DNA from: a virus
Lineage: Duplodnaviria > Heunggongvirae > Uroviricota > Caudoviricetes
IMG/VR virus record: IMGVR_UViG_2541047758_000018
DNA length: 34,871 nucleotides
Reading direction: 5' to 3' (one strand)
This document shows, one piece after another, positions 1-28,221 of the stretch. Position numbers and translations under genes: made by a program. The notes beneath the pieces are model-generated. The model was not told the origin of the DNA. It saw only the letters and a program-made list of their open reading frames with translations, and did no database searches. Each line of letters starts with the position of its first letter. Within the stretch, counting starts at the first letter, position 1.

Positions 1-1260
1 ATGCCAAAACTCACAGATATGCAGATCCGCACATGGATAAAGGCGGGAGACAGATTTGATGGCAAGGCAGACGGCAACGGCCTTTATATTTGCTACCCCA
101 AAAACTACACAGTCCCGTTCTGGCGATTCCGCTATAAGCTCGCAGGAAAGCAGCGGGCTATGGTTATAGGCTCTTACTCCGAACTGTCACTATCAAAAGC
201 CAGAGAAACAGCAAAAGAGCTGTCAGCCAGAGTTGCTCTTGGCTATGACGTAGCAGCAGAGAAACAGGAACGAAAAGCTGAAGCACTGGCAAAAATGGAG
301 GCTGAGAAAAACGCCATGCGTGTTTCAGATCTGGCCTCCGAATACTTCGAGCGCCAGATACTTCCGAGATGGAAACATCCCGATATCCTTCGCCGGAGAA
401 TTGATAAGGATATTAACCCCTGCATTGGGCATATGAAGGTAGAGGACGTTAAGCCACGTCACATTGACGACATGTTGAAAGGTATCGTTGACCGAGGAGC
501 ACCAACGATAGCAACAGATGTATTACGCTGGACACGCCGTATCTTTGACTATGGGATAAAACGCCACGCTCTGGAGATAAACCCTTGTTCAGCGTTTGAA
601 GTATCTGATGCTGGTGGTAAAGAGGTTTCCCGCGACCGTTGGCTAACTCGCGATGAGCTTATCAGGCTATTCGAGGCTATGCGCACCGCAAAAGGATTCA
701 GCCGCCAGAACGAACTGACATTTAAGCTATTGCTGGCACTATGCGTTCGTAAGATGGAGTTATGCGCCGCACGATGGGAAGAGTTTGATTTAGATGGTGC
801 GGTATGGCATTTGCCGGAAGAACGCAGCAAAAACGGAGACCCTATTGATATACCTCTACCTTCCCCAGCCGTTGAATGGTTGAGAGAGCTACACACCTTT
901 TCATGTAATAGCGCATGGGTGCTTCCAGCCAGGAAAATGCAAAACAGAATGATCCCACATATTCAGGAAAGCACTTTACCCGTAGCACTGGCTAAGGTTC
1001 GCGCCGAAATGCCGGATGTGCCTAATTTCACGATTCACGACTTCCGACGCACCGCACGTACTCATTTAGCAGCGTTGGGTGTTGATCCTGTCGTAGCGGA
1101 ACGATGCCTCAATCATCGCATTAAGGGCGTAGAGGGGATTTATAACCGCCATCAGTATTTTGATGAGCGTAAAGCAGCACTGGCACTGTGGGCTGATCTG
1201 CTGGTGGCACTGGAAAGCGGAAAAGACTACAACGTAACGCCTCTCAGAAGGGCGAACTAA
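1..1260 (+). CDS. int: P4-type tyrosine integrase (site-specific recombinase), apparently full length (419 aa)
   Basis: N-terminus MPKLTDMQIRTW resembles the P4-integrase N-terminus (MSLTDAKIR... from memory); C-terminal catalytic region HDFRRTARTHLAALGV...NH...GIYNRHQY carries the R/H-x-x-R...Y tyrosine-recombinase signature. It is the first gene of the island, so the att site would lie upstream of the window. Confidence 0.9.
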   Translation: MPKLTDMQIRTWIKAGDRFDGKADGNGLYICYPKNYTVPFWRFRYKLAGKQRAMVIGSYSELSLSKARETAKELSARVALGYDVAAEKQERKAEALAKMEAEKNAMRVSDLASEYFERQILPRWKHPDILRRRIDKDINPCIGHMKVEDVKPRHIDDMLKGIVDRGAPTIATDVLRWTRRIFDYGIKRHALEINPCSAFEVSDAGGKEVSRDRWLTRDELIRLFEAMRTAKGFSRQNELTFKLLLALCVRKMELCAARWEEFDLDGAVWHLPEERSKNGDPIDIPLPSPAVEWLRELHTFSCNSAWVLPARKMQNRMIPHIQESTLPVALAKVRAEMPDVPNFTIHDFRRTARTHLAALGVDPVVAERCLNHRIKGVEGIYNRHQYFDERKAALALWADLLVALESGKDYNVTPLRRAN

Positions 1261-1355
1261 CTGAATAGATTGAGCCTAGCTCGACGGGGCGAAAAGCGGG
1301 AAGCCTTACCGCCTGGCTCAATCACAAAATAAGGCGCAGCGTAAAAGGTGACGCA

Positions 1356-2435: not shown

Positions 2436-2639
2436 ATGAACACCGACACTATTCCTACAAAAGGCTATATCAGACGCTTTCGCCTGGCTGAATTGCTGGG
2501 CGTTAGTGTATCCACCATCGACCGTAAAGTAAGAAACGGTTCACTACCACGTCCGGTAAAGCTGGGAGAAAAAATAACTGCGTTTGATGCGGTTGAGATT
2601 CACAACTGGCTGGCAGAACGCCGCGGGAAGGTGGCCTGA
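2436..2639 (+). CDS. AlpA-family (phage excisionase/transcriptional regulator-like) HTH protein, 67 aa
   Basis: Small protein with the pattern RFRLAELLGVSVSTIDR...LPRPVKLG....F...E...WL typical of AlpA/Xis-like winged-helix regulators; positioned directly downstream of the integrase module as in CP4-57 and PICI-type elements. Confidence 0.75.
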   Translation: MNTDTIPTKGYIRRFRLAELLGVSVSTIDRKVRNGSLPRPVKLGEKITAFDAVEIHNWLAERRGKVA

Positions 2640-3082: not shown

Positions 3083-3916
3083 ATGAACATCGAAAAAAGC
3101 AGATTAATTTCTGAGGCCGCCCCTCATCTGAACGCCTCTCTGGGCACAATTAACGGTAATGAATTTGCCGCAATTGTCCCGGTTATTCCTGGTCATATCG
3201 GTGGGCGTGAAACCAATATTGTTAGCGCAAAAGCGTTACACAAAGCGTTGGGCGTGGGAAAAGACTTCTCTACATGGATCGCTGATCGCATCTCTGAATA
3301 TGACTTCACCATTGGGCACGATTACTCAGTCCATAAAACAATTTCCCCAAATTTGGGGAAAAGCCCGAATGGCGCGGCTTACAGCAAGATTAAGCACTCT
3401 GGCAGACCCGGCAAAGACTATCTGTTAAGTGTCGGAATGGCGAAAGAACTGGCAATGATCGAACGCAATGATCAGGGTCGCGCTATCCGTCGTTATTTCA
3501 TCCAGTGCGAGGAAGAATTACAGCGTAGCGTTCCTGAAATCGCCGCCCGCTATCGTCGCCAGCTAAAAGCCCGTATCAGTGCCGCAAACAACTTTAAGCC
3601 AATGTGCGATGCGCTGAACATGGCCCGTGCCGAGCAGGGGAAAACGACGCAGCAACACCACTACACAAACGAGAGCAATATGATTTCTCGTATCGTTCTT
3701 GGTGGGCTAACTGCTAAGCAGTGGGCGCGGATAAATGGCTATTCTGGCGAACCTCGCGACCATATGAACGCAGAACAGCTTGAGCACCTCTCATATCTCG
3801 AAAGCACCAATATCACGTTAATTGATATGGGCATGGAATATGAGCAGCGCAAAGGAGAACTCACCCGCCTGTCGCAACGCTGGCTCGCTAAGCGTCTGGA
3901 GGCGGTCAATGTCTAA
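3083..3916 (+). CDS. Phage antirepressor-like protein (AntA/AntB-type N-terminal domain)
   Basis: N-terminal segment VSAKALHKALGVGKDFSTWIADRISEYDFTIGHDY matches the antirepressor/KilA-type pattern (..F.NWI..RI..Y.F.EG.D..); 277 aa is typical. Confidence 0.55.
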   Translation: MNIEKSRLISEAAPHLNASLGTINGNEFAAIVPVIPGHIGGRETNIVSAKALHKALGVGKDFSTWIADRISEYDFTIGHDYSVHKTISPNLGKSPNGAAYSKIKHSGRPGKDYLLSVGMAKELAMIERNDQGRAIRRYFIQCEEELQRSVPEIAARYRRQLKARISAANNFKPMCDALNMARAEQGKTTQQHHYTNESNMISRIVLGGLTAKQWARINGYSGEPRDHMNAEQLEHLSYLESTNITLIDMGMEYEQRKGELTRLSQRWLAKRLEAVNV

Positions 3917-4091
3917 GCCAACAGGAACACCACAACCACAAAAACGCTACAAAGATGCCCACGGAGCACTCGTTACTGTCGAAAGCGTGTCTCACAACCG
4001 AGTGACGTTTTATCGCGACGGGTATCAATCGCCATGCGTACAACCGCTGGCACGTTTCATGAAGGAGTTCGCGGAGGTTAACAAATGCTAA
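3909..4091 (+). CDS. Small hypothetical protein (60 aa); start chosen at internal ATG 3909 rather than ORF-track start 3822
   Basis: ATG at 3909 overlaps the stop of the antirepressor-like gene (ATGTCTAA), typical of translational coupling; the longer ORF-track version would overlap the upstream gene by about 95 nt. Confidence 0.4.
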   Translation: MSKPTGTPQPQKRYKDAHGALVTVESVSHNRVTFYRDGYQSPCVQPLARFMKEFAEVNKC

Positions 4092-4522
4092 CCGCCCAGA
4101 AGAAGATATTTTCACTGGCTGGTATATCGCCAAAATCCAGCAATATGACAGCAAAGTCTGGCATTAATACAGCAGATACAAGCAAAGTTTATCATTTTCT
4201 GGTGGTAGGAGCGGATGCCTTAACTATGTCAGAAATTACGGTCGATGGTGTTAGCATTGAGAAGGTCAGCGGCTGCGCCAGAGAATTTCTGGTCGTAGAT
4301 GACCTGTTCTGCTCGCGTAGTGACTCCACAAAAATCTTCGTCCACGCGCGTGACGTTAACGAAATGAGCGCGATGTACTGTGCTTCTGGTTCTTCCAATA
4401 GTGAGTTTTCGGAGTCCATAAAAAAGAGCTTGCCGTTATGCGGCAACACGGTTTATGGTTATAAGGCACCTCATAAAACGGGTGCCGGGTTTCGCAGCCC
4501 GGAAATGTACGAGGCGACACAT

Positions 4523-4544
4523 GACGCGCCGAGCGTCTTTTTTT
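4523..4544 (+). terminator. Putative Rho-independent terminator
   Basis: gacgc-gccga-gcgtc hairpin followed by ttttttt. Confidence 0.45.
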
Positions 4545-4550
4545 GTGCCG

Positions 4551-4590
4551 TTAGCCAGACTCACACTTTTTTCAGTGATGTGGTTATAAT
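4551..4590 (+). promoter_or_regulatory. Putative sigma70 promoter for the early (primase) operon
   Basis: Perfect -10 hexamer tataat at 4585-4590 with a weak -35 candidate about 17-18 bp upstream; followed by a roughly 150-nt hairpin-rich leader and an aaggagg Shine-Dalgarno before the ATG at 4747. Confidence 0.35.
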
Positions 4591-4746
4591 CCGCGTCGCT
4601 TGCAAAATTATGGTGGGCTGGACAGGGCAGCCGAAAGGCTGGCCGGTTTCCTTGTACGCCGGTACTGCGAACTCTGTTCAGTCCACCACCAGCGAGTTTC
4701 GCAGCTCCGGTGGTGGGAAGAATTCCCAGTACAAGGAGGCTGCCAC

Positions 4747-4941
4747 ATGCTGGCTACTACCCCTACCCAAAAACCGCAATTTATCTGGATTATCGCCGCA
4801 GTTCGCCGCGATTGCCCGACAATTACCGCCAAAATTCATCATATTGCTGCCGAGTCTGAACGCGATGCTCGCCGTTCTCTGGTGCGCGATCACGTCTGCT
4901 TTTTTGCTGGTCGTATCCGCATGGAGGTGGCACATGATTAA
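4747..4941 (+). CDS. Small protein (64 aa), possibly Icd/Kil-like (host cell-division inhibitor-like), first gene of early operon
   Basis: Strong Shine-Dalgarno aaggagg 7 nt upstream of ATG 4747; protein MLATTPTQKPQFIWIIAAVRRD...ARRSLVRDHVCFFAGRI resembles Icd-like small proteins as I remember them. Preferred over the 355-aa ORF 4085-5152 that spans it in another frame. Confidence 0.4.
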   Translation: MLATTPTQKPQFIWIIAAVRRDCPTITAKIHHIAAESERDARRSLVRDHVCFFAGRIRMEVAHD

Positions 4942-5144
4942 AACCTACGATGTGCATATGGACCCCCTCGAACGCACAAGCCAGATCATCACACTGACAG
5001 AAGTGATTAATGACATTCTGGTGAGCAACTCTCCCTCACGAGACGAAAAACTGAAGGCGTTACTCGCGATATTGGATCTCGCCGTTCGTGACGTTCATTT
5101 CCTGCTGGAAGGTGGCGAAATGCCGGTAAAAACGGGGGCAACCA

Positions 5145-5339
5145 ATGAATAACTCAATCAATACCCCTCGCCTTACGTCCGCACTTCAATTAATCGAGCA
5201 AGCAGCGGCTGTCCTGCTTGCTGTCAGTCTTTCGGCTGAAGAAATGGATGCTGCTGATGTCGTGGATGCGATTAAAGCGTGCTCATCTTTGGTTAACGAT
5301 GCCCGTGCAGAGCTGGTAATTCTTGGGGGTGAAAAATGA
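5145..5339 (+). CDS. Small hypothetical early protein (64 aa)
   Basis: Part of a chain of small ORFs with overlapping stop/start codons leading to the primase gene. Confidence 0.5.
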   Translation: MNNSINTPRLTSALQLIEQAAAVLLAVSLSAEEMDAADVVDAIKACSSLVNDARAELVILGGEK

Positions 5340-6412: not shown

Positions 6413-6422
6413 GGATGGAGCC

Positions 6423-6764
6423 ATGATTACTAAAAATTTCCGACTGAATGCGCTGGCAAATAAGTATGCGTCGGCACTGTATAACCACATTACCTCCACC
6501 AGCGGCGGGGACTATTTCATGGTTGATGCGGACGGCGAGGCCGTCCGTGTGGAAATCGTCAATGGAGTAAAAGGCGTTCGCAGCCTGATCGATAGCTACA
6601 CACTGGCAGCCATGAAAGTGTTCTACCCGCAGTGGGAAACCGTGGGGATCGAGCTTCTTGAACGTTGCGTCACTAAGGACGGATTGACTGACGTCGGGCG
6701 TGAGATATGGCAAAGCATGGTTAATGACATGGGCGCAACTGTAGCGGGAGGTTCTCATGCGTGA
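6423..6764 (+). CDS. Hypothetical protein (113 aa)
   Basis: ORF with ggatggag Shine-Dalgarno-like sequence upstream; operon position. Confidence 0.5.
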   Translation: MITKNFRLNALANKYASALYNHITSTSGGDYFMVDADGEAVRVEIVNGVKGVRSLIDSYTLAAMKVFYPQWETVGIELLERCVTKDGLTDVGREIWQSMVNDMGATVAGGSHA

Positions 6765-7128
6765 AAATGCAGAAATGGCGCTTAGCTCCGCAATCGGAGA
6801 GCAGGTGGCAAAGATTGCTGGTGCTGTGTGGATTCATAACCTTCATTCTACTGGTGAAGAGAAAATGGCAATTCAGACGCCAGAGGGACGCACCATTACT
6901 ACATCTCTGAAGCCGTCAGATGTTTGTGATCTGATTTGCGCATTCATGTACCCAGCAATGAGGACTGTCCACGGCGATAAGTGGAAACTTGCGACAACCG
7001 CTGAATTTGATATGTGGCTAAACAATGATGGCATGCTGACTGATTACGGAATAACCAAGTGGCAGATGCTGGTTAGCCATATCGCAAACGCTATAGACCA
7101 CGTGGGGTACGGTGATGCGAAACATTGA
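6757..7128 (+). CDS. Hypothetical protein (123 aa)
   Basis: Overlaps the upstream gene by 8 nt and the primase gene by 17 nt, typical phage-like coupling. Confidence 0.5.
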   Translation: MRENAEMALSSAIGEQVAKIAGAVWIHNLHSTGEEKMAIQTPEGRTITTSLKPSDVCDLICAFMYPAMRTVHGDKWKLATTAEFDMWLNNDGMLTDYGITKWQMLVSHIANAIDHVGYGDAKH

Positions 7129-9871
7129 TCTTATCCGTCAGGTTATCAGTGCGTCTGAAAACAACTGGCCTCATGTGCTGGGCTGCCTGAACATAAATGT
7201 CCCTGACTCTCCGCGCCGTCATGCTCCCTGCCCTGCATGTGGGGGCAAAGATCGATTCCGATTCGACGACAACGGGCGCGGTAGCTTCATCTGTAATCAG
7301 TGCGGCGCTGGTGATGGGCTGGATTTAATTAAACGCGTAAATAACTGCGACACAACAGAGGCGGCGTTGCTTGCCGCTGATGTTCTGGGTATTGATTACC
7401 GGACAACGGAAACACCAGAAGCCACCAGCCAGAAACGGGAACAACTGGAAACCGAGCGCCAGCGACGCGAACAGGAGCGCCTGAAAAGGGCAGAGAAGGA
7501 CGAACAACAAAGACGGGATACGTTTTCCCGTCAGTTTGATGACATGCGCAGAAAGGCTGTAAACGGCAAATCTGATTATCTGGTTGCGAAAGGGGTAGGT
7601 GATTTTACATTCCCCGTGTTGCCCGATGGATCTCTGTTGCTGGCGCTGGTGGATAAATCCGGCGCAGTCACAGCAGCACAGACTATTACCTCACATGGTG
7701 AAAAAAGACTCCTGACAGGTTCAGCAAAGCGAGGGGCATATCACGCCATAAACGCACCAGAAACAACACAGAGCATCTTAATCGCAGAAGGGCTGGCAAC
7801 GGCATTATCTGCCCATTTAATTCGTCCAGAGGCGCTGACAGTGGCGGCGATTGATGCCGGGAACCTGTTATATGTCGCCCAGGTACTGCGGGATAAATTT
7901 CCTTCAGCACAAATCATCATTGCTGCGGATAACGACCACAGCGAAGGAAGACAAAACACGGGGAGAATAGCAGCAGAAAAAGCAGCTTTATCTGTTTCTG
8001 GATGGGTGGCATTACCCCCGACAGATCACAAAGCAGACTGGAATGATTACCACCAAAAACACGGCATTAAATGCGCCACAGAAGCGTTCAATAAGTCAAT
8101 GTACCAACCACAGGGTAATGGCGTGAAACAGGAGCCACAGACCATTGAGGGAAGCGATTTTAAGGTTATGGATACCGACCCACTGAAACCAAGAATAGAA
8201 AGCCGCGAGGATGGTATTTATTGGGTATCTCCGAGAGCTGACAGCCAGAGTGGAGAAATCATCAATAACGAAAGCTGGTTATGTTCTCCGTTAAGCGTTA
8301 TCGGTACTGGCAGAGACGATAAAGACCAGTATCTCATTCTTCGCTGGCTGTCGTTTGGTTCTGAAACGCCGACAACCGCTGCCATTCCACTGGCTGATAT
8401 TGGTGAACGTGAAGGATGGCGCACACTTAAAGCTGGTGGGGTAAATGTCACGACCAAAAGCAGCCTCAGAGCAATACTGGCAGACTGGCTACAACGCAGT
8501 GGCTCTCGTGAATTGTGGCGTGTTGCTCATGCCACTGGCTGGCAATGCGGAGCGTACATCATGCCTGATGGGGAAATCATCGGAACACCTGAAAATCCTG
8601 TGCTGTTCAGCGGGAGAAGCTCAGCCGCAGCCGGATATACCGTCTCAGGGAGCGCGAAAAGCTGGCGTGATAACGTGGCGCGTCTGGCCTTTGGTAACTA
8701 TTCAATGATGACCGGGATCGGCGCAGCACTGGCAGCGCCATTGATTGGGCTGGTGGGCGCTGACGGGTTCGGCATTCATTTCTATGAGCAGTCGAGCGCA
8801 GGTAAGACCACCACGGCAAACGTGGCGAGCAGCTTATACGGCAACCCTGATTTACTGCGGCTGACGTGGTACGGAACCGCGCTGGGGCTGGCAAATGAAG
8901 CTGCCGCCCACAATGACGGACTAATGCCGCTTGATGAAGTTGGTCAGGGCGCTGATCCTGTCAGTGTTTCACAGTCTGCCTATGCGTTATTTAACGGTGT
9001 AGGGAAACTGCAAGGCGCTAAAGATGGTGGAAACCGGGATCTAAAACGCTGGCGTACAGTGGCAATCAGCACCGGAGAAATGGATTTAGAAACATTTATC
9101 GCTACTTCCGGGCGAAAAACCAAAGCCGGGCAACTGGTGCGACTGCTGAATATTCCGTTGAGTAAAGCAGTACGCTTTCACGATTACCAGAACGGAAAAC
9201 AGCACGCAGACGCACTGAAAGACGCTTACCAGCATCACCACGGCGCGTCCGGGCGTGAGTGGATTAAATGGCTGGCAGACCACCAGCAACAGGCTATTAA
9301 AACTGTTCGTGATTGCGAAAGCAGATGGAGAAGCCTGATCCCATCCGATTATGGTGAGCAGGTTCACCGTGTAGCCGCGCGATTTGCCATTCTGGAGGCC
9401 GCATTGTTGTTAGGCGAGGTTGTAACAGGCTGGGATGCTCAGACATGCCGTGATGCGATACAGCACAGCTATAACGCATGGTTGCGCGAGTTCGGCACAG
9501 GTAACAAAGAGCATCAGCAGATTATTGAACAAACGGAGGCATTTCTTAATGCCTATGGGCTTAGCCGTTTTGCACCATTTCCATACAGCCCGGCAGATTT
9601 GCCCATCAAAGATTTAGCCGGATACCGTCAGCGTGGAGAACATGACGAAAGTCCAATGATTTTCTACACATTCCCGGCCACATTTGAAAAGGAGATCGCA
9701 TGTGGTTTCAACGCAAAACAGTTTGCTGAAGTGTTGAAAAAAGCCGGGATGCTAACCCCACCAAACAGCGGTCGTGGATACCAAAGAAAATCACCACGTA
9801 TTCAGGGACGACAAATAAACGTTTATGTACTCAATTACCAGCCAGGAGATTACAACTCATCTGAAGAATGA
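7112..9871 (+). CDS. P4 alpha-like primase-helicase (Zn-ribbon + TOPRIM primase + C-terminal NTPase domain), 919 aa
   Basis: Zinc-ribbon motif PCPACGGKDRFRFDDNGRGSFICNQCGAGDGLDLI; TOPRIM-like acidic motifs ILIAEGLATAL and IIIAADNDHSEG; C-terminal region with Walker-A-like YEQSSAGKTT. Confidence 0.9.
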   Translation: MMRNIDLIRQVISASENNWPHVLGCLNINVPDSPRRHAPCPACGGKDRFRFDDNGRGSFICNQCGAGDGLDLIKRVNNCDTTEAALLAADVLGIDYRTTETPEATSQKREQLETERQRREQERLKRAEKDEQQRRDTFSRQFDDMRRKAVNGKSDYLVAKGVGDFTFPVLPDGSLLLALVDKSGAVTAAQTITSHGEKRLLTGSAKRGAYHAINAPETTQSILIAEGLATALSAHLIRPEALTVAAIDAGNLLYVAQVLRDKFPSAQIIIAADNDHSEGRQNTGRIAAEKAALSVSGWVALPPTDHKADWNDYHQKHGIKCATEAFNKSMYQPQGNGVKQEPQTIEGSDFKVMDTDPLKPRIESREDGIYWVSPRADSQSGEIINNESWLCSPLSVIGTGRDDKDQYLILRWLSFGSETPTTAAIPLADIGEREGWRTLKAGGVNVTTKSSLRAILADWLQRSGSRELWRVAHATGWQCGAYIMPDGEIIGTPENPVLFSGRSSAAAGYTVSGSAKSWRDNVARLAFGNYSMMTGIGAALAAPLIGLVGADGFGIHFYEQSSAGKTTTANVASSLYGNPDLLRLTWYGTALGLANEAAAHNDGLMPLDEVGQGADPVSVSQSAYALFNGVGKLQGAKDGGNRDLKRWRTVAISTGEMDLETFIATSGRKTKAGQLVRLLNIPLSKAVRFHDYQNGKQHADALKDAYQHHHGASGREWIKWLADHQQQAIKTVRDCESRWRSLIPSDYGEQVHRVAARFAILEAALLLGEVVTGWDAQTCRDAIQHSYNAWLREFGTGNKEHQQIIEQTEAFLNAYGLSRFAPFPYSPADLPIKDLAGYRQRGEHDESPMIFYTFPATFEKEIACGFNAKQFAEVLKKAGMLTPPNSGRGYQRKSPRIQGRQINVYVLNYQPGDYNSSEE

Positions 9872-9895
9872 GCTTCTTCATGTGCGTAGAAAAGG

Positions 9896-10010
9896 TGTTG
9901 GTTCAGTTGGTTCAGTTGGTTCAATTTGTAAAGAGTATTGTTTTATAAGGATTTTATTCTTTTTATTGAACCAACACTGAACCAACAACACGGTATTTTG
10001 AACCAACACA
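9896..10010. repeat. Putative replication origin: three tandem GGTTCAGT-type iterons, AT-rich spacer, three inverted GAACCAAC iterons
   Basis: gtgttggttcagttggttcagttggttcaa (9896-9925), then about 40 bp of AT-rich sequence, then ttgaaccaacactgaaccaacaacacggtattttgaaccaacaca (9966-10010); sits immediately 3' of the primase gene, as ori/crr does in P4 and as ori does in PICIs. Confidence 0.6.
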
Positions 10011-10328
10011 ATGTGACTGAATTGATGCGCACAACACCTGGCTGGCATCAGAGAGTGTTTTACGAGACTTTCGTAAAATCCTGTGTACAAGGGCGTGACG
10101 TTTTTGAAAGTGAGCACTACGAAATTTTCGTAGTTCAAAAAACAGCCTCTGAGAAGTTGTTATGCCTGTTCAGCAAACCATCCGCATAGCTGATCGCGAA
10201 TCAAATTACCAATGGAGCCAGAAGCAAGGGCAGAACTGAAAAGCACCTGCCGTGAAGAGTAATGCGATACCATAAATATAGTTTTTAGAGTCCATAAAAA
10301 ACCTGTCAAAACCTGACACACAGAACGA

Positions 10329-10360
10329 TGCCACCAGCTACTGAGCGGTGGCATTTTTTT
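10329..10360 (+). terminator. Putative Rho-independent terminator
   Basis: gccacc-agctactgagc-ggtggc hairpin followed by attttttttg. Confidence 0.55.
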
Positions 10361-10456
10361 TGTGCTATTTGTTTCATATTTTGCAATTACGATGATGAAT
10401 ATTGCGATTTGTGAAACTATAATAACTGTTGTTTTATACAGTTCTAAGGGGGCGTT

Positions 10457-10618
10457 ATGGCTATTTCAGTAAAGCCGGTATTGATAAGTGAGAAGCAAAT
10501 GGAAGCGATAAAGAAAATTCAGGAAGAGCAGCGTAAAAAATCAGGAATTGGAGTAGCGCCAACTCTGCATGAAATTGCACGAGGGTTAATAGATAAGGCG
10601 CTGGCAGGCTGTATGTGA
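10457..10618 (+). CDS. Small protein (53 aa), possible ribbon-helix-helix-type regulator at the head of the ejection-protein operon
   Basis: Not in the ORF track (below 60 aa). ATG at 10457 is preceded by aagggggcg Shine-Dalgarno; translation MAISVKPVLISEKQMEAIKKIQEEQRKKSGIGVAPTLHEIARGLIDKALAGCM; about 80 bp of AT-rich promoter-like sequence lies between the terminator and the start. Confidence 0.4.
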   Translation: MAISVKPVLISEKQMEAIKKIQEEQRKKSGIGVAPTLHEIARGLIDKALAGCM

Positions 10619-10634
10619 AAATGGATGGCATCGC

Positions 10635-11096
10635 ATGGAACTAAAATTTATTGATAACCCTGTGCGATTACAGGCCTTTCTTAACGAGCCAGGCAATACC
10701 GAAAATATTGTTGAGCCGGGGCACACGTACTACATCAAGCCTGATGCGGTATATCTCGGCATCTACGAAGGATTAGTGCTGGCTGGCGTTCATGAAGTGC
10801 GTAACTTCTGGCATAGCGTTGTTGAATGCCATGCGGTGTACGACCCCGGATTCCGTGGTGAATATGCACTGCAAGGGCATCGATTATTCTGCAAATGGCT
10901 TCTCGAAAACTCACCATTCCTTAACAGCATCACTATGGTTCCTGACACCACGAAATACGGACGGGCAATTATCCGTTTGCTTGGCGCTACCCGTGTTGGT
11001 CACCTTGATGATGCTTATATCAGATGTGGTAAACCCGTCGGCGTAACGCTTTATCAGTTAACTCGGCAACAATATAAGGAATTCAGCGAATGTTAA
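10635..11096 (+). CDS. Hypothetical phage-like protein (153 aa), first large gene of ejection-protein-like operon
   Basis: ORF 16 nt downstream of the small regulator-like ORF; no motif recognised; position is analogous to P22 gp14 or T7 gp13 ahead of the ejection proteins. Confidence 0.5.
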   Translation: MELKFIDNPVRLQAFLNEPGNTENIVEPGHTYYIKPDAVYLGIYEGLVLAGVHEVRNFWHSVVECHAVYDPGFRGEYALQGHRLFCKWLLENSPFLNSITMVPDTTKYGRAIIRLLGATRVGHLDDAYIRCGKPVGVTLYQLTRQQYKEFSEC

Positions 11097-11767
11097 TTAC
11101 CCATATAGCTCATAAACATCTCAATCGTGCCGTATACGAAAAAGGCGGTGATGGTGGTGCCTCTAAAGCTCAGGCGAAGGCCCAGCAGCAGGCAATTGAT
11201 TTGCAGCGCGAGCAGTGGAATACGGTGATGAATAATCTCAAGCCGTATGCAGAAGTCGGATTGCCTGCTTTACAACAACTGCAAGGACTGATGACTCTGG
11301 AAGGGCAGAATAAAGCCGCGAATGATTTCTTTGGTTCTGGTTTATATAAAACACAGGCAGATCAGGCCCGTTATCAGAACCTTGTCTCAGCAGAAGCTAC
11401 CGGGGGGCTTGGCTCAACAGCTACCAGTAACCAGTTATCTTCCATTGCGCCCATGCTTTATAACAATTGGCTCAGTGGGCAAATGCAAAATTATGGAAAC
11501 CTGCTAAATGTCGGGATGAATGCGGCATCAGGGCAGGCAACGGCAGGGCAAAACTACGCCAATAATACCGGACAACTCTTGCAGGGGCTTGGCGCTATTC
11601 GTGCAGGTCAGGCGCAGCAGCCATCCAGTCTTGCGCGTGGTATTGGTGGGGCAGCATCAGGCGCTTTAGCGGGTGCGCAACTTGGTTCCGTTGTTCCTGG
11701 AATAGGAACTGCGGCCGGCGCTATTGGTGGTGGGCTTATTGGTCTTGTTGGGGGGCTTGGATTCTAA
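11090..11767 (+). CDS. Glycine-rich protein (225 aa) with hydrophobic Gly/Ala C-terminal tail; podovirus ejection/internal-virion-protein-like
   Basis: C-terminus GIGGAASGALAGAQLGSVVPGIGTAAGAIGGGLIGLVGGLGF is membrane-insertion-like; Q/N-rich body; operon-coupled to neighbours. Confidence 0.5.
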   Translation: MLITHIAHKHLNRAVYEKGGDGGASKAQAKAQQQAIDLQREQWNTVMNNLKPYAEVGLPALQQLQGLMTLEGQNKAANDFFGSGLYKTQADQARYQNLVSAEATGGLGSTATSNQLSSIAPMLYNNWLSGQMQNYGNLLNVGMNAASGQATAGQNYANNTGQLLQGLGAIRAGQAQQPSSLARGIGGAASGALAGAQLGSVVPGIGTAAGAIGGGLIGLVGGLGF

Positions 11768-13086
11768 TGGCGACATGGCAACTTGGCGGGCTGCCTAGCA
11801 TGGCACCGCAAAATGATAATGCTCCTCGTTCTTCCGTTCCTCAGCCTGTGCAGTATCAGCAGCAGCCAAACGTAGGTTTAATGGCGCTACAGGGGCTAAG
11901 AGGCGTTGCTGAGATTAATCAGCAGGCGCAAATTTCCCAGCAGTTAAAAGAATATCAGGCACGGTTGGGTAGTGCGGTAGCTAATAATGATCGTGTTGGC
12001 GTGCAGAAGTTAATGGCCCAGTATCCCCAGTTTATGGCTGATTCTCAAAAACAGATGGGATTCATTGATGCTGAGCAAAATCGACAGACCGCTGACGCTG
12101 CCATGAATCTGCGTCTTGCGTCACAAACTGGAGATCCACTGACCATGCAGAAGGCCATTCAGCAGGCAAATCCAGTATTACAGCGATTTGGTCTTCCTGC
12201 TGAAGAGGTTTATCAGTCTTGGCAGAATGACCCACAGGAATTCAACAGAATCACTGACCTCATCCACCTCCATGCTGATCCAAATAGTTACTTTAGTGTT
12301 CAAGAGAAGCAGCAAGGGCAGAGCATTGCACAGCAGAACGCAGATACATCCGCATATAATGCTCAGGTTAATGCGGAACAGGGTAATCGACGTCTCGATA
12401 TGGAGCAGTTCAAAGTCCTATCCGATAACCAACTACGCACGAGAGAAATGGTTCTGAAAGCACGACTTGGACGTGCTCAAAATGACATCGAGAGAGACAA
12501 GCTCAATGCTGAACTGAGCAAGGTACAGCAGGCGAAAGTGGAGAAGATGAACGATAAAATTAATACTGTTGCAGGTAACATCGACTCCTTGAACTCTGCG
12601 CTTGAAGTGGGTCATGAACTGGCGGGAATTGTAGGGAAACATCCTTCGGCCGTTACCCGCTCGCAGAACTATAACCCCCTGACGCTGGGGTTTGGATTCC
12701 TTCCTGATGTAGCAGAAGACACACGAAGCCTACGCGCCAAAGCTGATGAATACAACCTAAAGGTTATTCTGCCTAGCCTCAAAGGGACTTTTGGCTCTAA
12801 CCCAACCGAAGGGGAAAGGGCTGCCCTTATGCAATCTCAAAATGGCATTAAGTCAGCAACCAGCAATGAGGCATTTTTGCGAGAGTTGAATAAAGCGCAG
12901 GACGTAATTATTCGAATGCAGAAACGACAGATTGCCGGGCTCGGTATTCCTGTAACCAAATCTAAGGACGAAGAAACTGATACCAAAATGCTGTTGCAGG
13001 ATCCTTCACTAGTTAAGGATTATGTGACCGCACATGGCTATCTGCCGGAAAGTTACTATCAGGCAAAACTTAAGGGATGGCAATGA
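11767..13086 (+). CDS. Gln-rich coiled-coil-like protein (439 aa); ejection/internal-virion-protein-like
   Basis: ATG overlaps the upstream stop (TAATGG); composition and size resemble the middle ejection protein of podoviruses (P22 gp20 / T7 gp15 class). Confidence 0.5.
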   Translation: MATWQLGGLPSMAPQNDNAPRSSVPQPVQYQQQPNVGLMALQGLRGVAEINQQAQISQQLKEYQARLGSAVANNDRVGVQKLMAQYPQFMADSQKQMGFIDAEQNRQTADAAMNLRLASQTGDPLTMQKAIQQANPVLQRFGLPAEEVYQSWQNDPQEFNRITDLIHLHADPNSYFSVQEKQQGQSIAQQNADTSAYNAQVNAEQGNRRLDMEQFKVLSDNQLRTREMVLKARLGRAQNDIERDKLNAELSKVQQAKVEKMNDKINTVAGNIDSLNSALEVGHELAGIVGKHPSAVTRSQNYNPLTLGFGFLPDVAEDTRSLRAKADEYNLKVILPSLKGTFGSNPTEGERAALMQSQNGIKSATSNEAFLRELNKAQDVIIRMQKRQIAGLGIPVTKSKDEETDTKMLLQDPSLVKDYVTAHGYLPESYYQAKLKGWQ

Positions 13087-15414
13087 TGGCACAACTGACA
13101 GAAAAACAGAAAGCCTATTCCCGTCATCTCGATGAAAAATATGGTTTCCCATCAGGGACGATGGAAACATTAGTTGGCAATGAATCTAGTGGTAACGGAA
13201 GTGCCGAGTCACCGAAAGGAGCTAGAGGATTTGCTCAACTGATGCCCTCAGTAATGAGTGATGCTGGTTATCGTGGAACAGATCCGCGCTCACTGCCATT
13301 TGAAAAGCAAATGGATATCGCAGCAAACCATCTCAATAAAGGAATGAAGCGATTTGGTGATATAGGTATGGCATTGGCTGGGTATAATTCTGGCTATGCT
13401 CGTATTAATGCCGTCAGAAACGGTAAATCTACACTGCCAGATGAAACGGCTAATTACGTAAGTAAATTTGCAGATGCTGGAATAATCCCTGATGACAGTG
13501 AAATCTTGCAGTTTGCACAAACCAGTCAACATCGCAATCTTCAGCAGCCTGACTACTCAGAGCTTGATAAAGAAATCTCTCAGGTGGGAGATATTTCTGC
13601 ATGGGAAGCAAAACGTCAGCAATTTAAGAACATAGAAGCAGGACTACCAACAGCCAGTTCATGGGAGCAGAAAAGAGCTCAGTTTCTCGCCGATGAAAAT
13701 GCCGGGGAACCGCAGCAGCAAGTAGCCAAGTCTAACCTTAATCCTGAGATGGAATATCTTTCGCCAGGACTGAAAGCTGCGCCAGAGCAGATGGCCAGAG
13801 GGATTGCTAATATACCGTTTGATGTAATGGACGCAGGCGTGGGGGTAGTCAATGCGGCGCAATCAGCCGGAGCATGGGCAGCTCAGAAGCTTGGTGTGGG
13901 TGATGGCACATACACGCCCATATCACCTGTCTTTCGCCCAGTAGACCAACCTACAGATCCATACGCGCAGGCTGGTGAGCAGCTAGCACCTTACCTTATT
14001 ACAGGATTAGGTGCAGGAAAGGCAGCTACCGCAGCTTCTTCAGTTGCCAACGCTCCACGTGCTGAACGTGCGGCCACAAAGGTGGCTAGTATGTTGGCAG
14101 AAAACCTGCCAGGTACATTGGTGAACGCCCAAAAGAACGGGCAGATCAGCCCAGAAGACCTAGCAAAAGAGACAGGTATTGGCCTAGCAGGATCGCTAGG
14201 AGCACGCGCTTTAATAAAGAGCGGACAGACAGCCAGTGACGTAATGCGAGATGTATTGCGGAGTAATACAAATCAATCAGGCCATGTGTTAGGGGCAGCA
14301 AATACTCTGGAAACCGCCAATGATGTATCGAAAGCAGCGCGTTCTGCCGTAGGCCGAGAGCATATCGCATCGCAGGCATCAAACGTCAGAGATGATGTCG
14401 CTAAGGCGGCGAAAATCACTGGTATTAATATCAACACCCTGACGCCTGGAATGCGCTCAGGTAGTCGTGGAATTGCCCAAGCAGAAGGTGTTCTGGCATC
14501 AACTCCTGGGAATGTTCAGGATGCTCACCTTACGGCCTTCAATGAAATATCCTCAAAGTTGAATAAGCAGTTGTCTGATTTCGGTGCTGAGTCTGGAAGC
14601 GCATCAGAAAAAAGCGCAGCAATTAAAGAGCGCATCATCGCGAGCCTCAGTGATATGAAAACAGCAGAGAATATGGCATGGGCAGAACTGCGAAGCACGA
14701 TGCCACGCGAAAGGATGAAAATGAGTAATGGGATGGCTGTCGTCCAAGCAGAAAAAGCAGCCAATGTTCCACTCAGCCCGGAGATGAAACAGTTTCAGGC
14801 TGCCAACAACCAAGGTGGCGGCATAACCTTCGACGGGATGAAGGCATGGCGTGCTAAGTTTGCTGATGCTGAACAAGCAAACACCCGGGCAGGTAAGGCC
14901 AATGCCGCCCGGATTGCCGGAGAAATGCGCAGAGCTATCACTGATGACATGCGCATCATGGCTGAAAAAGGAAACTTCCTCACAGAATGGCAGAAAGCTA
15001 ACGATCTCTCTAAAAGTTACATTATCGCCAAACAAAATGCCGAATCTGTTTTTGGTCGAGATCTCGCATCAGACGCTATGGTAAGAAAAGGTGCCGATAC
15101 GCTTAAGGCATCCGCAAACACTGGAACGGGAGCTTTTCACCGTCTTATCTCCGCGCTGCCGGAAGCAGAACGCCAACCTGCAATAGCATCTATTCTTCAG
15201 CATGCTGTGGCGCAGGGAGAGAAGGGAGGAATCGGTGAAGAGTCAGGTATCCAGTATTTTGCCAAGCTCATGACCCAGCAGAATGTAAACGCCATCAGTC
15301 GTCATGCGCCAGATCTCGGTAGAATGATGAAAGAGTTCGGTGTACTCGCTAAAGCCAGTACCAGACCGCAGCGATACGTAGAGCGCACGGGAAGAACAAC
15401 TGAGGCTCTCAAAA
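13077..15414 (+). pseudogene. Phage internal-virion/ejection-type protein with N-terminal lytic transglycosylase (SLT) domain, 3'-truncated by IS911-like insertion (native part about 779 codons)
   Basis: SLT signature ESSGNGSAESPKGARGFAQLMP ... ALAGYNSGY near the N-terminus. The ORF reads through the IS end at 15415 and terminates inside the IS at 15569, so the last 51 codons are IS-derived. Confidence 0.7.
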
Positions 15415-15444
15415 TGAAGTGGTCAACAAAAACTGGCCACCGAG

Positions 15445-16628
<1,184 letters not shown>

Positions 16629-17051
16629 CTCTGTTCAGGTGGCCAAATTCAGTAAACCACTTCAGTTCCTGGAGATGATTCGTTGCTTGTGAGCAAGAGG
16701 TGGTCCGCTTTACTGGACAAGTTTTGCATTTGTTGAGTGGTGAAATGGAAGTAAAAAGAGCCCCTTTCTGGCAATGACTGAAAAAGTCAGTAGCGTGTGA
16801 CAGTAAAAACTAACATAAAGTGATTATCGTATGATTATGACAATGACTTATAACTTTTATGAAAAGAACAACAGAAACTATGAAACCATAGCAGATTCCT
16901 GAGACCATGTTTTTTGAGGTAGAGAAAATAATTCAAGAGTAAACCAGTTTGTTTTTTGATCAGTAAAGAACCATGCCTGATGTGAAAACGGGTAATCAAC
17001 ATTCAGTCTGCATGAGTGTCTGAGAATGTTGCTAATGTCGGTATGATACTA

Positions 17052-17210
17052 TATACACATATTTTACTAAGTATTTTTACTAAGCATTTCAGTAAGTGTT
17101 ATACACGTATTTTCTACTAAGTGTTTTACCAGACATACACGTATTTTCATAAACACTTCTACAAGTGTTTTCATTAAGTATTGTTATACACATTGCTTTG
17201 TCTGACACAC
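17052..17210. repeat. Imperfect direct-repeat array (ATACAC[A/G]TATTTT and ACTAAGT[G/A]TTTT motifs, about 4 copies) inside a 1.37-kb ORF-free region
   Basis: atacacatattttactaagtatttttactaagc / atacacgtattttctactaagtgttttacc / atacacgtattttcataaacacttctacaagtgttttcattaagt / atacacattg; no ORF of 60 aa or more on either strand between 16665 and 18034. Confidence 0.5.
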
Positions 17211-17980
17211 ATCCAGTTTAGTAAATCTTTACGTTAGCTAAAATCAGTTTAAAGCTGCTACAAAGCAATCTTTCCTGTTTAAGCAATCAAGATGACATTC
17301 TGTTTTTCTGAAGTTACGTTTAACCTTTTCTGAGTTTTTGTGTTTTTGGTCGTTAACCGGAGAAAAGTATCTTTACGTAAAAACGCAAATCCGACTGAGA
17401 TAACCTGGCGTGATTTACGGAGTGCTTACGACGATTTAGTTAAATGGTTTTATGGATGATTTTGTAGCGATGAGGTTGATGAGATGATTAACTGGCCCTG
17501 GTGTTTTTTTTTCTCAGAGCAAGGCTCTTTTCAGAAAAAGCGTGATGATTGGTTCTGGTGTTTTGATTCAGATGAGGTTTACGTTATCGATGGTTAATCG
17601 CTTTTATGGTGCGTAGTGAAACGTAACATTTTCAGGATGAGAAAATCGATTCTGATGTTAGTGGTTTTTGTTCTTGGGGTGGGGTTATCTGTAAACAGGT
17701 TTTAAACGCGCTATTCGGCTCTGTGATTGAGTTGTGTGGTTAAGCTATAGGTTTTGGTGTTGTTGTTGATTCACAGCGCCAGAAATCGTTCTGATTGCGT
17801 TTTTGATGTTTTGTTTGCACGTTCTGTTGATCCGTTTCCCTTCTGACTTTTCTCGTCGTCCATGCCGTTTTTAAATTCATTTGCTGTTGTTGTGTTTTTT
17901 TACCATCTTTTCGTTTGTAGGGGATTCCATTTTTATCCGGAGTAGGTTGTGTTGCTCAATGGTGGGAGTTCGTAAAGTTT

Positions 17981-18024
17981 TACCGCGGTGATTAATGATG
18001 TGAAGTCAATCCAAATCAATGGAG
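17981..18024 (+). promoter_or_regulatory. Conserved roughly 44-bp motif, copy 1, ending 10 nt upstream of the first YagK/YfjJ-like gene (includes its Shine-Dalgarno ggag)
   Basis: taccgcggtgattaatgatgtgaagtcaatccaaatcaatggag; near-identical core to copy 2 at 18917-18956. Confidence 0.45.
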
Positions 18025-18034
18025 ATCTCTCATC

Positions 18035-18766
18035 ATGAATCAACCAATACACAATGCTTACTGGTTATCCCGTTTTGAAAGTATTCTCAACAGTGCCCTG
18101 GCGCAACACCGTGCCGTCTCGTTAATCCGGGTGGATTTACGTTTCCCTGAGTATATGCCTGCCACCATTATGGATACCGATTTAGATTCAGCGGTGATTT
18201 CTCGTTTTTTCGAATCCCTGAAAGCAAAAATTCAGGCTTACCAGCGACATAAACGACGTGCCAACAAGCGTGTGCATGCAACCACTCTGCGTTATTTCTG
18301 GTGCCGGGAGTTCGGCAAGGAAAAAGGCAGGAAACATTATCACGTGATATTACTGCTCAACAAAGATACCTGGTGCTCGCCAGGGGATTTCACCGTTCCT
18401 TCTTCGCTGGCGACGCTGATCCAACTGGCATGGTGCAGTGCTCTGCATCTTGAGCCCTGGCAGGGTAATGGACTGGTTCATTTTTCCAGGCGGACGCCTT
18501 TCCGTAAACCGACATCATCCGATGCTCGCCCTTCTTCCGATGACACGCCTTTACCTGGTGGATGTTCTGATACCCGGAAGGATTCTGACAAAAAGTCTGG
18601 TGGATCCGCTGTGCTCTGGATCAAGCGTGGTGATGTAGAAGCGATGCAGAAAGCCATGGAGAGAGCCCGTTATCTCGTGAAGTATGAGACGAAGCAGCAT
18701 GACGGTTCTGGTCAACGTAATTATGGTTGCAGTCGTGGAGCGGGGCGTCTACTGGATGGCAGGTGA
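18035..18766 (+). CDS. CP4-type prophage protein, YagK/YfjJ-like (inovirus Gp2-like family) - assignment from memory of family features
   Basis: 243-aa protein with RVDLRFP ... KHYHVILLL pattern; tandem paralog arrangement next to an AlpA-like gene as in CP4-6/CP4-57 cryptic prophages. Confidence 0.45.
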   Translation: MNQPIHNAYWLSRFESILNSALAQHRAVSLIRVDLRFPEYMPATIMDTDLDSAVISRFFESLKAKIQAYQRHKRRANKRVHATTLRYFWCREFGKEKGRKHYHVILLLNKDTWCSPGDFTVPSSLATLIQLAWCSALHLEPWQGNGLVHFSRRTPFRKPTSSDARPSSDDTPLPGGCSDTRKDSDKKSGGSAVLWIKRGDVEAMQKAMERARYLVKYETKQHDGSGQRNYGCSRGAGRLLDGR

Positions 18767-18916
18767 ACCCTGTAAAACGGCATCCGGTGCCTGAGCGTAT
18801 GCCACGGTAGGGCGTCAGCCAACGCCCTTACCTCGTATTCTGATCACTCATTCTGAAGTCATGCAACGGTATTTTTATCTGCTTCCGCTCTTGGAAACAC
18901 TCCGTCGGTAAAAACT

Positions 18917-18956
18917 TACCGCCTTGATTAATGATGTGAACCGAAGTCAACGGAGG
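18917..18956 (+). promoter_or_regulatory. Conserved motif, copy 2
   Basis: taccgccttgattaatgatgtgaaccgaagtcaacggagg; shares tgattaatgatgtgaa...gtcaa...gga with copy 1. Confidence 0.45.
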
Positions 18957-19149
18957 TCATTCACCTTAAACCCACCTCAGGAATTTTACACCTGTCAGGT
19001 CTCCTGACTGTCCTGGCATACGACATCTGCCATCCCCGGTTCCACGGTTATTACATCAACAACCTCTGTACACGACGCCTTCAGTTTCACAATACGCTCG
19101 TCTTTCGCTGGCGGGGATGCGTCGTGCGTTTCTATATGGAGCATATCTT

Positions 19150-19722
19150 ATGAATGGTATCCCTCATTTCGACTATAGCCTGGCGCCCTTCTGGCCGTCT
19201 TATCAGAACAAAATCATCGGTGTTCTCAACCGTGCGCTGCGTGAACAGTCCTGCTCCCGGGTACGGCGGATCCTGCTTCGTCTGCCATGTGAATATGACA
19301 CTACCTTCAGTAGCAGAAAGACCTGGTTTGGTATGGACTTTATCGAAACTGTCAGTGCGCTGATGAATGCAAACCCCGGACGTGATCTCTGCTGGCTCCT
19401 GACTCGTCATCCGGAAAAGCCGGAATACCACGTGGTGCTGTGCGTCAGACAGGAGTATTTCGACGGCCCCGAACTGGATCGGTTGATACTGGATGCCTGG
19501 AGCAACGTACTGGGCTTCGCGTCACCGGGTGAAGCGGCACCGTACCAGAAGCAGATAACACGGGATGTGGTGCTGGACAGTCGTTCACCGGACTGCGAAG
19601 ACATCCTCAAAGAGCTGATATGGGCATTCAGTGATTTCGCCCGCGATCGTCGTGGTGTGCGCGATCCGGAAGCCCGTTACCTCGTCGGTAATCCCTGGTA
19701 TCCCGTAGCAGGCCAGCTCTGA
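19150..19722 (+). CDS. Second YagK/YfjJ-like paralog (190 aa); start placed at ATG 19150 (ggag Shine-Dalgarno 9 nt upstream), alternative start 19117
   Basis: RILLRLPCEYD ... EYHVVLCVRQEYF parallels RVDLRFPEY ... HYHVILLLNKD of the upstream paralog. Confidence 0.45.
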   Translation: MNGIPHFDYSLAPFWPSYQNKIIGVLNRALREQSCSRVRRILLRLPCEYDTTFSSRKTWFGMDFIETVSALMNANPGRDLCWLLTRHPEKPEYHVVLCVRQEYFDGPELDRLILDAWSNVLGFASPGEAAPYQKQITRDVVLDSRSPDCEDILKELIWAFSDFARDRRGVRDPEARYLVGNPWYPVAGQL

Positions 19723-19790
19723 AAGCACAGTTCAGCAGATTCACCCGCATTTGCCCAACCTTCATAAATCTCACAAAGGACATTCTGACC

Positions 19791-20838: not shown

Positions 20839-20839
20839 A

Positions 20840-22014: not shown

Positions 22015-22049
22015 TTTATGGCAAATCACCTGATAGGATTTGCCATAAA
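22015..22049. promoter_or_regulatory. Perfect 13-bp-arm palindrome about 25 nt upstream of the H-NS-like gene (candidate operator or hairpin)
   Basis: tttatggcaaatc-acctgatag-gatttgccataaa. Confidence 0.45.
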
Positions 22050-28219: not shown

Positions 28220-28221
28220 TA

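Follow-up and report, generated by a model that had tools for sequence, protein, structure and literature searches.

The region examined here lies at positions 10457-15414 of a 34,871-nucleotide stretch of viral DNA (Caudoviricetes; IMG/VR record IMGVR_UViG_2541047758_000018), which at its full length is called the window below. The list of open reading frames (ORFs) gives five tightly packed ORFs there, all in one orientation, with a 53-amino-acid (aa) ORF first. Families were assigned by comparison with Pfam and PHROGs, and all of the assignments (E-values given below) are far above threshold:

10457..10618, plus strand: 53-aa ORF at the operon head, start codon at 10457; possible ribbon-helix-helix regulator
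10635..11096, plus strand: homologue of P22 gp14, 153 aa; DUF2824/PF11039 1.5e-61, phrog_651 'head morphogenesis' 1e-66
11090..11767, plus strand: homologue of gp7, 225 aa, with a Gly-rich hydrophobic tail; P22_gp7/PF25688 6.6e-73, phrog_598 3.2e-70
11767..13086, plus strand: homologue of gp20, 439 aa, Gln-rich; Inj_translocase/PF16928 3.7e-22, phrog_917 and phrog_2534
13083..15414 (start 13077/13083), plus strand: homologue of gp16 with an N-terminal SLT domain; SLT/PF01464 9.5e-13, phrog_770 'DNA transfer protein' 7.9e-102

The matches are not confined to short domains: PF25688 spans residues 16-223 of the 225 aa of the gp7 homologue, and phrog_2534 (8.6e-43) extends across residues 1-385 of the gp20 homologue. 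The order of the genes, 14-7-20-16, is that of P22, HK620 and Kapi1. A sequence-only reading of this DNA had described four ORFs of 153, 225 and 439 aa and a long SLT ORF, all of which are present in the ORF list, and had guessed a podovirus ejection class from their sizes and composition; Pfam, PHROGs and gene order bear the guess out and specify it as P22 gp14/7/20/16. It had also named conjugative-transfer or secretion proteins as the finding that would overturn the guess. All significant Pfam and PHROG matches are to phage families, with no VirB1, pilin or type IV secretion system family among them, and a conjugation or secretion-system reading was ruled out for this reason.

In P22-like virions, gp7, gp20 and gp16 are the proteins that are ejected and form the DNA conduit across the envelope, with gp7 as its outer-membrane or tail-proximal part and gp20 as a periplasmic tube. 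In the gp16 homologue the SLT motifs are intact (GNESSG, with its E-S, GFAQLM and AGYNSG, within residues 30-110), so that its N-terminal domain has the catalytic motifs by which an SLT lytic transglycosylase is predicted. This protein is 47-52% identical to gp16 of Dewey, CUS-3, epsilon34 and HK620. Across 50,697 phage records, the highest identity is 28.5% for the gp20 homologue, by its sequence a divergent allele, and 52% for gp16. The operon encodes a gp14-type assembly factor and a complete P22-type ejection set of gp7, gp20 and SLT-gp16, and the satellite to which it belongs probably brings its own DNA-injection channel.

The element belongs to a family that has already been published and experimentally validated as a podovirus satellite, of which the window holds a differently integrated member, cut by an insertion sequence (IS). 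EcCIMP1 is a 19,963-bp phage-inducible chromosomal island (PICI) of Escherichia coli MP1 with the helper vB_EcoP_Kapi1 (Pick, Stadel & Raivio, ISME J 2025; PMC11773190; GenBank OR778291). Window positions 2629-15414 are 98.8% identical to EcCIMP1 in DNA, the ejection proteins (E-proteins) are 98-100% identical (775/777 aa for gp16), and the order alpA, antA, ash, primase, 53-aa ORF, gp14, gp7, gp20, SLT-gp16 is the same. The two differ in their integrase modules (29% identity) and in an ORF of 321 aa that the window has between int and alpA; the window also lacks the last 129 gp16 codons, the lipoprotein gene, PerC and the right attachment site (attR). EcCIMP1 excises and circularises only upon induction of the P22-like Kapi1, and needs int and alpA to do so; it is transduced by Kapi1 at about 4.8e3 per ml without lowering Kapi1 titres, and Kapi1 lysogens that carry it have greater superinfection immunity (PMC11773190). 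The same authors suggested EcCIMP1_017-019 as possible packaging genes and reported no phage-like structural genes, and the words ejection, injection and transglycosylase are absent from their paper (PMC11773190). Whether podoviruses mobilise relatives of this element, a question raised by the sequence-only reading, is answered by the mobilisation of EcCIMP1 by the P22-like podovirus Kapi1 (Pick et al. 2025). That reading had offered two origins for the genes. A satellite supplying its own ejection apparatus stands as far as gene content goes, given the 98.8% identity to a Kapi1-mobilised PICI, and the use of the apparatus is the probable reading weighed below; a mosaic with a prophage remnant does not stand, as the relatives described next show.

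Intact relatives are islands of ~20 kb at tRNA-Thr, between proA and yagU/pao, which is exactly the site of EcCIMP1. Their left part holds int, alpA, a PM1773-family gene, antA, DUF4222, ash, several small ORFs and the primase, and their right part the 53-aa ORF, gp14, gp7, gp20, SLT-gp16 (906 aa), a 232-aa gene, variable genes and PerC. Annotation by the Prokaryotic Genome Annotation Pipeline shows no coat, portal, terminase, tail or lysis genes in them, and in 29 loci Kapi1 portal, coat, gp4, gp10 and gp26 gave no tblastn match within 10 kb. In layout they agree with Gram-negative PICIs, with int then AlpA at one end, a primase of their own with an origin, and a size of ~20 kb without lysis genes or a complete virion set. 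The intact relatives are therefore satellites and not the full independent prophages that the sequence-only reading had set against itself; downstream of the SLT gene, where it had proposed to look, they have the 232-aa lipoprotein gene and no terminase or tail genes. A prophage-remnant reading was ruled out by the intact islands, by the junction found in 240 genomes (see below) and by the absent P22 virion genes. One circular record of 12,152 bp (NZ_CP148430.1, pZ1323CEC0013_1-4, from E. coli Z1323CEC0013; locus L003) is an excised copy of an EcCIMP1-like PICI, with int, alpA, antA, ash, primase, a 57-aa ORF, a truncated gp20 and PerC; since it is circular, the EcCIMP1-like family can exist as a free circle.

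The 232-aa gene that follows gp16 in intact copies, and is absent from the window, encodes a lipoprotein, its signal peptide bearing an LLAGC lipobox (L001:25555-26253; L093:11749-12447, minus strand). It has no family match, and is a candidate for the EcCIMP1 immunity phenotype because it is sited where P22 has sieA. In locus L004, an alternative cassette is followed by a gene on the opposite strand (18966-19364) for a 132-aa signal-peptide protein.

Comparison of the operon between genomes points to a selected module. Of 5426 complete E. coli genomes, 240 have the junction of primase and gp14, and the whole operon is also found in Leclercia adecarboxylata, behind a primase of 68% identity. 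Between the E. coli and Leclercia elements, the 53-aa ORF has a ratio of nonsynonymous to synonymous substitution rates (dN/dS) of 0.03 and the four E-genes have ratios of 0.06-0.08 (dS 1.0-2.1), with dS at 1.0-2.5 over all five ORFs; on these rates the four E-genes are under strong purifying selection and appear functional in the family. Identity to the Kapi1 proteins falls along the operon, from 85% for gp14 (Kapi1_055) through 58% for gp7 (Kapi1_056) to 26% for gp20 and 23% for gp16. Backbones that are ~97-100% identical bear different gp20/gp16 pairs, with gp14 and gp7 present or absent, and in the 14 loci compared gp20 and gp16 are always matched (a/a or b/b), so that both change together. 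Strain 21EVA has no more of the cassette than a gp20/gp16 pair, and this is of another type: its gp20 is 28% identical to that of the window (N-terminus only) and its gp16 has no BLASTP similarity to the window gp16, yet both proteins match the same families. Escherichia sp. MOD1-EC7003 combines a 100%-identical primase and window-type gp14 and gp7 with the other gp20/gp16 pair. All 10 relatives of the window gp20 on viral contigs sit in a satellite layout.

Work on P22 gives the rule that this pattern fits. E-protein cassettes of foreign origin can be built into P22 virions and function there; a matching pair of gp16 and gp20 is required, whereas gp7 is exchangeable; and a mismatch in gp16 or gp20 still allows assembly but leaves the virions non-infectious (Leavitt et al. 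2024). The paired change of gp20 and gp16 in the 14 loci fits this matched-pair rule. In a satellite of Pectobacterium (L035:15130-19407), a gp20-like part (phrog_2534) and a gp16-like part (phrog_770) are encoded together in one ORF of 1425 aa, a natural fusion of exactly the two proteins that need to match. From the recurrent junction, the purifying selection and the exchange of matched cassettes we infer that the operon is a selected module and not debris.

The slot behind the primase was surveyed in 66 relatives of the window primase (at least 50% identity, one genome per species). A 53-aa ORF lies downstream of the primase in 32 of the 66, and ~26 of these 32 then have conduit-protein cargo. 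The cargo types are:

P22-type E-proteins: 3 loci, including the Pectobacterium 1425-aa gp20-gp16 fusion, there without a detectable small ORF
~108-aa ORF and full-length tape-measure protein (857-1245 aa): 12 loci; TMP_3 3e-57, phrog_1107 with E = 0
Other tape-measure-like proteins, often with SLT: 7-8 loci; phrog_2013, 2276, 2854, 7694
Second podovirus internal-virion set: 5 loci; phrog_418, 1044, 3003, 684
Small terminase: 1 locus, Citrobacter; phrog_370 2.2e-40

All of the surveyed cargo loci bear the satellite backbone. The satellites with other cargo span Klebsiella, Enterobacter, Pantoea, Erwinia, Chimaeribacter and further genera, with the cargo ~14-20 kb into each locus (L008, L009, L023-L025, L028, L030, L047, L054, L057; L016, L019, L041; L006, L022, L062, L046, L058, L067). 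At the loci with a lone tape-measure protein the ~108-aa ORF in front is conserved, and other tail genes do not accompany the cargo. Among the relatives without the small ORF, five are capsid-forming (portal, capsid and the large terminase, TerL) and a few have genes for the distal tail protein (Dit), hub or spike. The conduit cargo types have in common that the virion ejects these parts to bring DNA through the envelope. Because related satellites hold tape-measure, internal-virion or small terminase (TerS) genes in this slot, its contents appear to serve the exploitation of helpers. We found no description of satellites with ejection or tape-measure cargo in the literature.

Homologues of the 53-aa ORF lie directly before the cargo in 36 loci. 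Its product gave no match in Pfam, in PHROG, in a profile search of PDB sequences or in a Foldseek search with the AlphaFold2 model, which has an extended N-terminus and two helices at a pLDDT (predicted local distance difference test) of 78. The modelled protein is compatible with a ribbon-helix-helix regulator, its strand-helix-helix layout being the sole hint.

Two signals lie between the replication zone and this operon:

10327..10358, plus strand: intrinsic terminator, a GCCACC..GGTGGC stem then T8, parting the replication zone from the late operon
10418..10441, plus strand: late-operon promoter, TATAAT at 10418-10423, then the palindrome CTGTTGTTTTATACAG at 10426-10441

The promoter has a perfect TATAAT and no good -35. 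The palindrome CTGTTGTTTTATACAG has the LexA-box core CTGT-N8-ACAG, which occurs once in the 34.9-kb window; by chance, at least one such site appeared anywhere in the window in 40 of 100 shuffles. The palindrome presumably resembles the LexA box of uvrB. In 29 loci, among which every cargo type is represented, TATAAT and CTGTAT are conserved in front of the 53-aa ORF; the complete CTGT-N8-ACAG is retained at the same position in the loci with E-proteins and is also found in L054, L059 and EcCIMP1. These signals suggest that LexA may control the late operon, and SaPI operon I, the LexA-controlled packaging/interference operon of staphylococcal PICIs (Ubeda 2007), serves as a precedent. A P2/P4-type TGT-N12-ACA activator site upstream of the promoter was considered and dropped, the match by eye being just partial. 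The segment with terminator, promoter and 53-aa ORF (window 10055-10605) is found at ~93% identity in E. coli genomes that have no match to the primase end or to gp14 (H62-H64), and this unit may be shared with other types of element.

The remainder of the element's left part is the backbone of the satellite:

1..1260, plus strand: tyrosine integrase; Pfam Arm-DNA-bind_3, Phage_int_M, Phage_integrase
1269..1335, plus strand: int-alpA RNA motif; Rfam RF02996, 60.6 bits vs gathering score 35.8
2436..2639, plus strand: AlpA-type regulator, 67 aa, from ORF and sequence; the PICI master activator in EcCIMP1
3083..5152, plus strand: Bro zone, with AntA antirepressor, Ash-family ORF, and isrK and C4 RNAs
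3083-3916, plus strand: AntA antirepressor; Pfam AntA 2.7e-21
4085-5152, plus strand: Ash-family ORF; Pfam Phage_ASH 1.4e-28
4466-4543, plus strand: isrK, P4-type immunity RNA; Rfam 69 bits
4606-4693, plus strand: C4, P4-type immunity RNA; Rfam 81 bits
7112..9871, plus strand: primase-helicase (Zn-ribbon, Toprim, DUF927); Pfam, phrog_1139 2.4e-178
9897..9987, no strand: iteron cluster, GTTGGTTCA three times at 9897-9923 and TGAACCAACAC twice, inverted, at 9967-9987

The primase is identical to that of EcCIMP1 in 914 of 918 aa, and the iteron cluster behind it is a probable replication origin, in agreement with the primase and origin that the sequence-only reading had placed upstream of the operon (the Toprim and DUF927 primase at 7112-9871, then the iterons). 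The iteron stretch (window 9890-9976) is repeated, inverted, by PerC near the right end of relatives (L001:28712-28798, L093:9846-9910), where it may form a second origin-like site comparable to P4 ori/crr. The window integrase is of a different type from the thrW integrase of EcCIMP1 (29% identity). It is found at the left end of the satellites L006, L023 and L035 at 85-91% identity, and because this second type recurs at the left end of related satellites, the backbone appears to use at least two attachment sites. Satellites with this integrase type (L006, L022, L023, L035) have tape-measure or E-protein cargo. Between int and alpA, the window has the 321-aa ORF (1356-2321), without a Pfam match, a place taken in EcCIMP1 by a short ORF with a mistaken UvrB annotation; hotspots of accessory and defence genes are known at the 5' end of PICIs. 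Of the core that SatelliteFinder uses for P4-like satellites (sid, psu, delta, eps, alpA, int, alpha), the families of sid, psu and delta are absent from the Pfam and PHROG matches of the window ORFs.

At its right end the element is broken off by the following feature:

15415..16664, minus strand: IS3-family, IS911-like element of 1250 bp, with OrfA and OrfB on the minus strand

Its terminal inverted repeats are at 15415-15441 and 16638-16664, and it is flanked by AAA and GTT, without a target duplication. Homology with intact relatives ends at 15414 and does not resume beyond the IS; for these two reasons an IS-mediated deletion or recombination is indicated, not a simple insertion. The exact junction of satellite and IS has no match among complete E. 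coli genomes. The sequence-only reading had rightly seen that an IS911-like element cuts the last gene: the break comes after codon 777 of 906, the last 129 codons, including the Gly-rich hydrophobic C-terminal segment, are lost, and the 830-aa ORF of the ORF-finder list reads through into the IS. It had also judged the module probably non-functional now, which agrees with the loss of both the gp16 C-terminus and the right end of the element. By its sequence the window copy is dead, with the right end including attR gone, and should for that reason be immobile. To the right of the IS (16665-34871) lies a different, unrelated island, with a YagK/YfjJ-family gene at 18035-18766, an AlpA-like small ORF at 19791-20024 and a long ORF (31455-34871) that runs off the window end.

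Taking the intact relatives as the functional form, we incline with modest confidence to the reading that this region is the late operon of an EcCIMP1-type PICI, the products of which are loaded into helper particles as the satellite's own DNA conduit. DNA damage would induce the helper and switch the operon on from the promoter with the LexA box, and gp14 would assist the loading of satellite gp7, gp20 and gp16 into procapsids built by the helper. The gp14 and gp7 proteins, which would have to fit the helper virion, resemble those of the helper, whereas gp20 and gp16, which would meet the periplasm and inner membrane of the recipient, are the satellite's own and always form a matched pair. 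Injection from particles with satellite DNA would then go through the satellite's own conduit. Two benefits can be proposed speculatively, namely independence from the gp20/gp16 allele of the helper, and escape from entry exclusion of the SieA type in recipients with a helper-type prophage. SieA, a prophage protein, blocks entry via gp16/gp20 and blocks transducing particles too, and the E-proteins of HK620 partly escape it (Leavitt et al. 2024). Because SieA acts on gp16/gp20 and stops transducing particles, a divergent gp20/gp16 pair might, speculatively, favour a satellite that has to get into helper lysogens.

Several observations weigh against this reading. Transduction of EcCIMP1 by Kapi1 is very low (~4.8e3 per ml; PMC11773190), so that the natural helper may be a phage other than Kapi1, or the module may contribute little. 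Induction of EcCIMP1 alpA is helper-dependent and not SOS-dependent (PMC11773190), and the right half of the LexA-like box is not conserved in most loci of the tape-measure type. No packaging determinant (TerS or pac site) was identified in the element. A Kapi1-like prophage is present in just 2 of 21 EcCIMP1 strains (PMC11773190); in a rough count of helper co-occurrence, 5 of the top 30 satellite genomes had a second matching place. Finally, the region just downstream of pri is a known PICI defence hotspot, and the superinfection-immunity phenotype of EcCIMP1 lacks an explanation (PMC11773190).

These last two points lead to the main rival, which we consider unlikely: that the operon, perhaps with the following lipoprotein gene, is a defence or superinfection-immunity module, the E-proteins of which would block an incoming P22-like conduit, or would co-assemble as mismatched gp16/gp20 and make progeny non-infectious. 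EcCIMP1 does heighten the superinfection immunity of Kapi1 lysogens while having no known defence system, the region downstream of pri in PICIs is an immune hotspot with tail-assembly inhibitors, a mismatched gp16 or gp20 does make P22 virions non-infectious, and envelope proteins follow the cassettes (the LLAGC lipoprotein and, in the alternative cassette, the signal-peptide protein). However, EcCIMP1 neither lowers Kapi1 titres after induction nor affects infection of non-lysogens; one mismatched protein would suffice for interference, yet complete matched pairs are kept, usually with gp14, gp7 and an intact SLT site. With PADLOC, none of the E-proteins has a match, nor do the 53-aa protein, the lipoprotein and the unknowns of the backbone, and the promoter looks repressed and inducible rather than constitutive.

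It is distinctly improbable that the genes were captured from a helper to serve as back-ups, an insurance for prophages with lost or damaged ejection genes and without conduit specificity of their own. Gram-negative PICIs do capture helper late genes in a 'Late zone', and these have been proposed as backups (Tommasini et al. 2023); likewise, alpA_1 of EcCIMP1 can replace the Kapi1 excisionase, an 'insurance policy' in the words of the authors (PMC11773190). Recent capture of spare parts is, however, not what the identity of just 23-26% between gp20/gp16 and those of the verified helper looks like; moreover, the gp20 type, at most 28.5% identical to the 50,697 phage records, is found in satellite contexts only, and the genes have been under long-term purifying selection.

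We hold it to be very unlikely that the proteins redirect packaging towards the satellite, as the EcCIMP1 paper suggests for EcCIMP1_017-019, although the position is the one where characterised PICIs keep packaging genes, DUF2824/phrog_651 is labelled 'head morphogenesis' and in Citrobacter a small terminase occupies the slot: the gp7, gp20 and gp16 ejection families account for three of the four proteins, with E-values of 1e-22 to 1e-102, and none of the four resembles a terminase, Rpp, Sid/Psu or a scaffold. Scarcely credible is a chance mosaic of P22-like prophage debris beside an unrelated P4-like island, to which the truncated, IS-fused state of the window copy might point, given that 240 genomes share the junction, as does Leclercia with a primase of 68% identity, that the operon lies inside the excising unit between primase and PerC/attR, and that further P22 virion genes are absent within 10 kb and dN/dS is ~0.07.

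Compared with known systems, the operon matches the cassette of P22-like phages (Lederbergvirus: P22, Sf6, HK620, CUS-3, Kapi1) in its four families, their order and the paired variation of gp20 and gp16, and gp16 of Dewey and Huey also has an N-terminal SLT domain (97% coverage, 47% identity to the window gp16). It differs in lacking the preceding genes 4, 10 and 26 and the following tailspike gene, and in lying behind a satellite primase under its own promoter. With Gram-negative PICIs the element shares the four zones of Int/AlpA, Bro zone with C4/isrK, primase and late genes (Tommasini, Mageeney & Williams 2023; Fillol-Salom 2018/2019). In contrast to the described Late zones, which hold mainly capsid and packaging genes of lambda-like helpers, the zone here holds a podovirus conduit; the main text of Tommasini et al. 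2023 has no ejection or tape-measure proteins, and the Pfam names searched are absent from its supplements. Some relatives of the window primase belong to capsid-forming PICIs (portal, capsid, TerL). SaPI operon I is likewise a helper-exploitation operon of a satellite with an SOS-box promoter (here the SOS control is inferred from sequence), but encodes TerS and capsid-size genes in place of ejection proteins. P4 has the same P4-type primase, C4/isrK immunity RNAs, Ash and Icd-like genes and AlpA, and differs in that sid, psu and delta were not detected here and that a podovirus is the helper here instead of P2.

What phage satellites are known to take over is capsid size, packaging specificity or whole capsids; to our knowledge, there is no satellite for which replacement of the proteins that bring DNA through the recipient envelope has been demonstrated. 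What appears to be new here is that the packaging candidates are a full gp14/7/20/16 ejection set; the gradient of identity to the helper, the exchange of matched pairs, the putative SOS promoter and the conduit cargo in the same slot across genera appear to be new as well. The window itself is a modest finding, being an inactivated copy of a published element; the general hypothesis is of higher interest, and the EcCIMP1/Kapi1 pair is an existing experimental system in which it is directly testable. Extended to the surveyed slot, the hypothesis, which we put forward tentatively and rate as somewhat short of probable, is that a wider class of Enterobacterales satellites has a helper-exploitation operon that encodes an ejected conduit of the helper's type (P22-type gp7/20/16, other podovirus internal-virion proteins or siphovirus tape-measure proteins, each behind the conserved small ORF and promoter), not capsid or packaging functions, so that the satellite, with envelope-crossing parts of its own in the particle, would control DNA entry. 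If this is true, satellites could enter helper lysogens that exclude the helper's conduit (SieA for P22-like helpers, gp15-type exclusion for HK97-like ones), and a large group of 'Type C' PICIs, now treated by finders as probably defective, would be explained. Satellites would then decide their entry specificity themselves, perhaps bypassing superinfection exclusion, and predictions of the host range and spread of satellite-borne traits would change.

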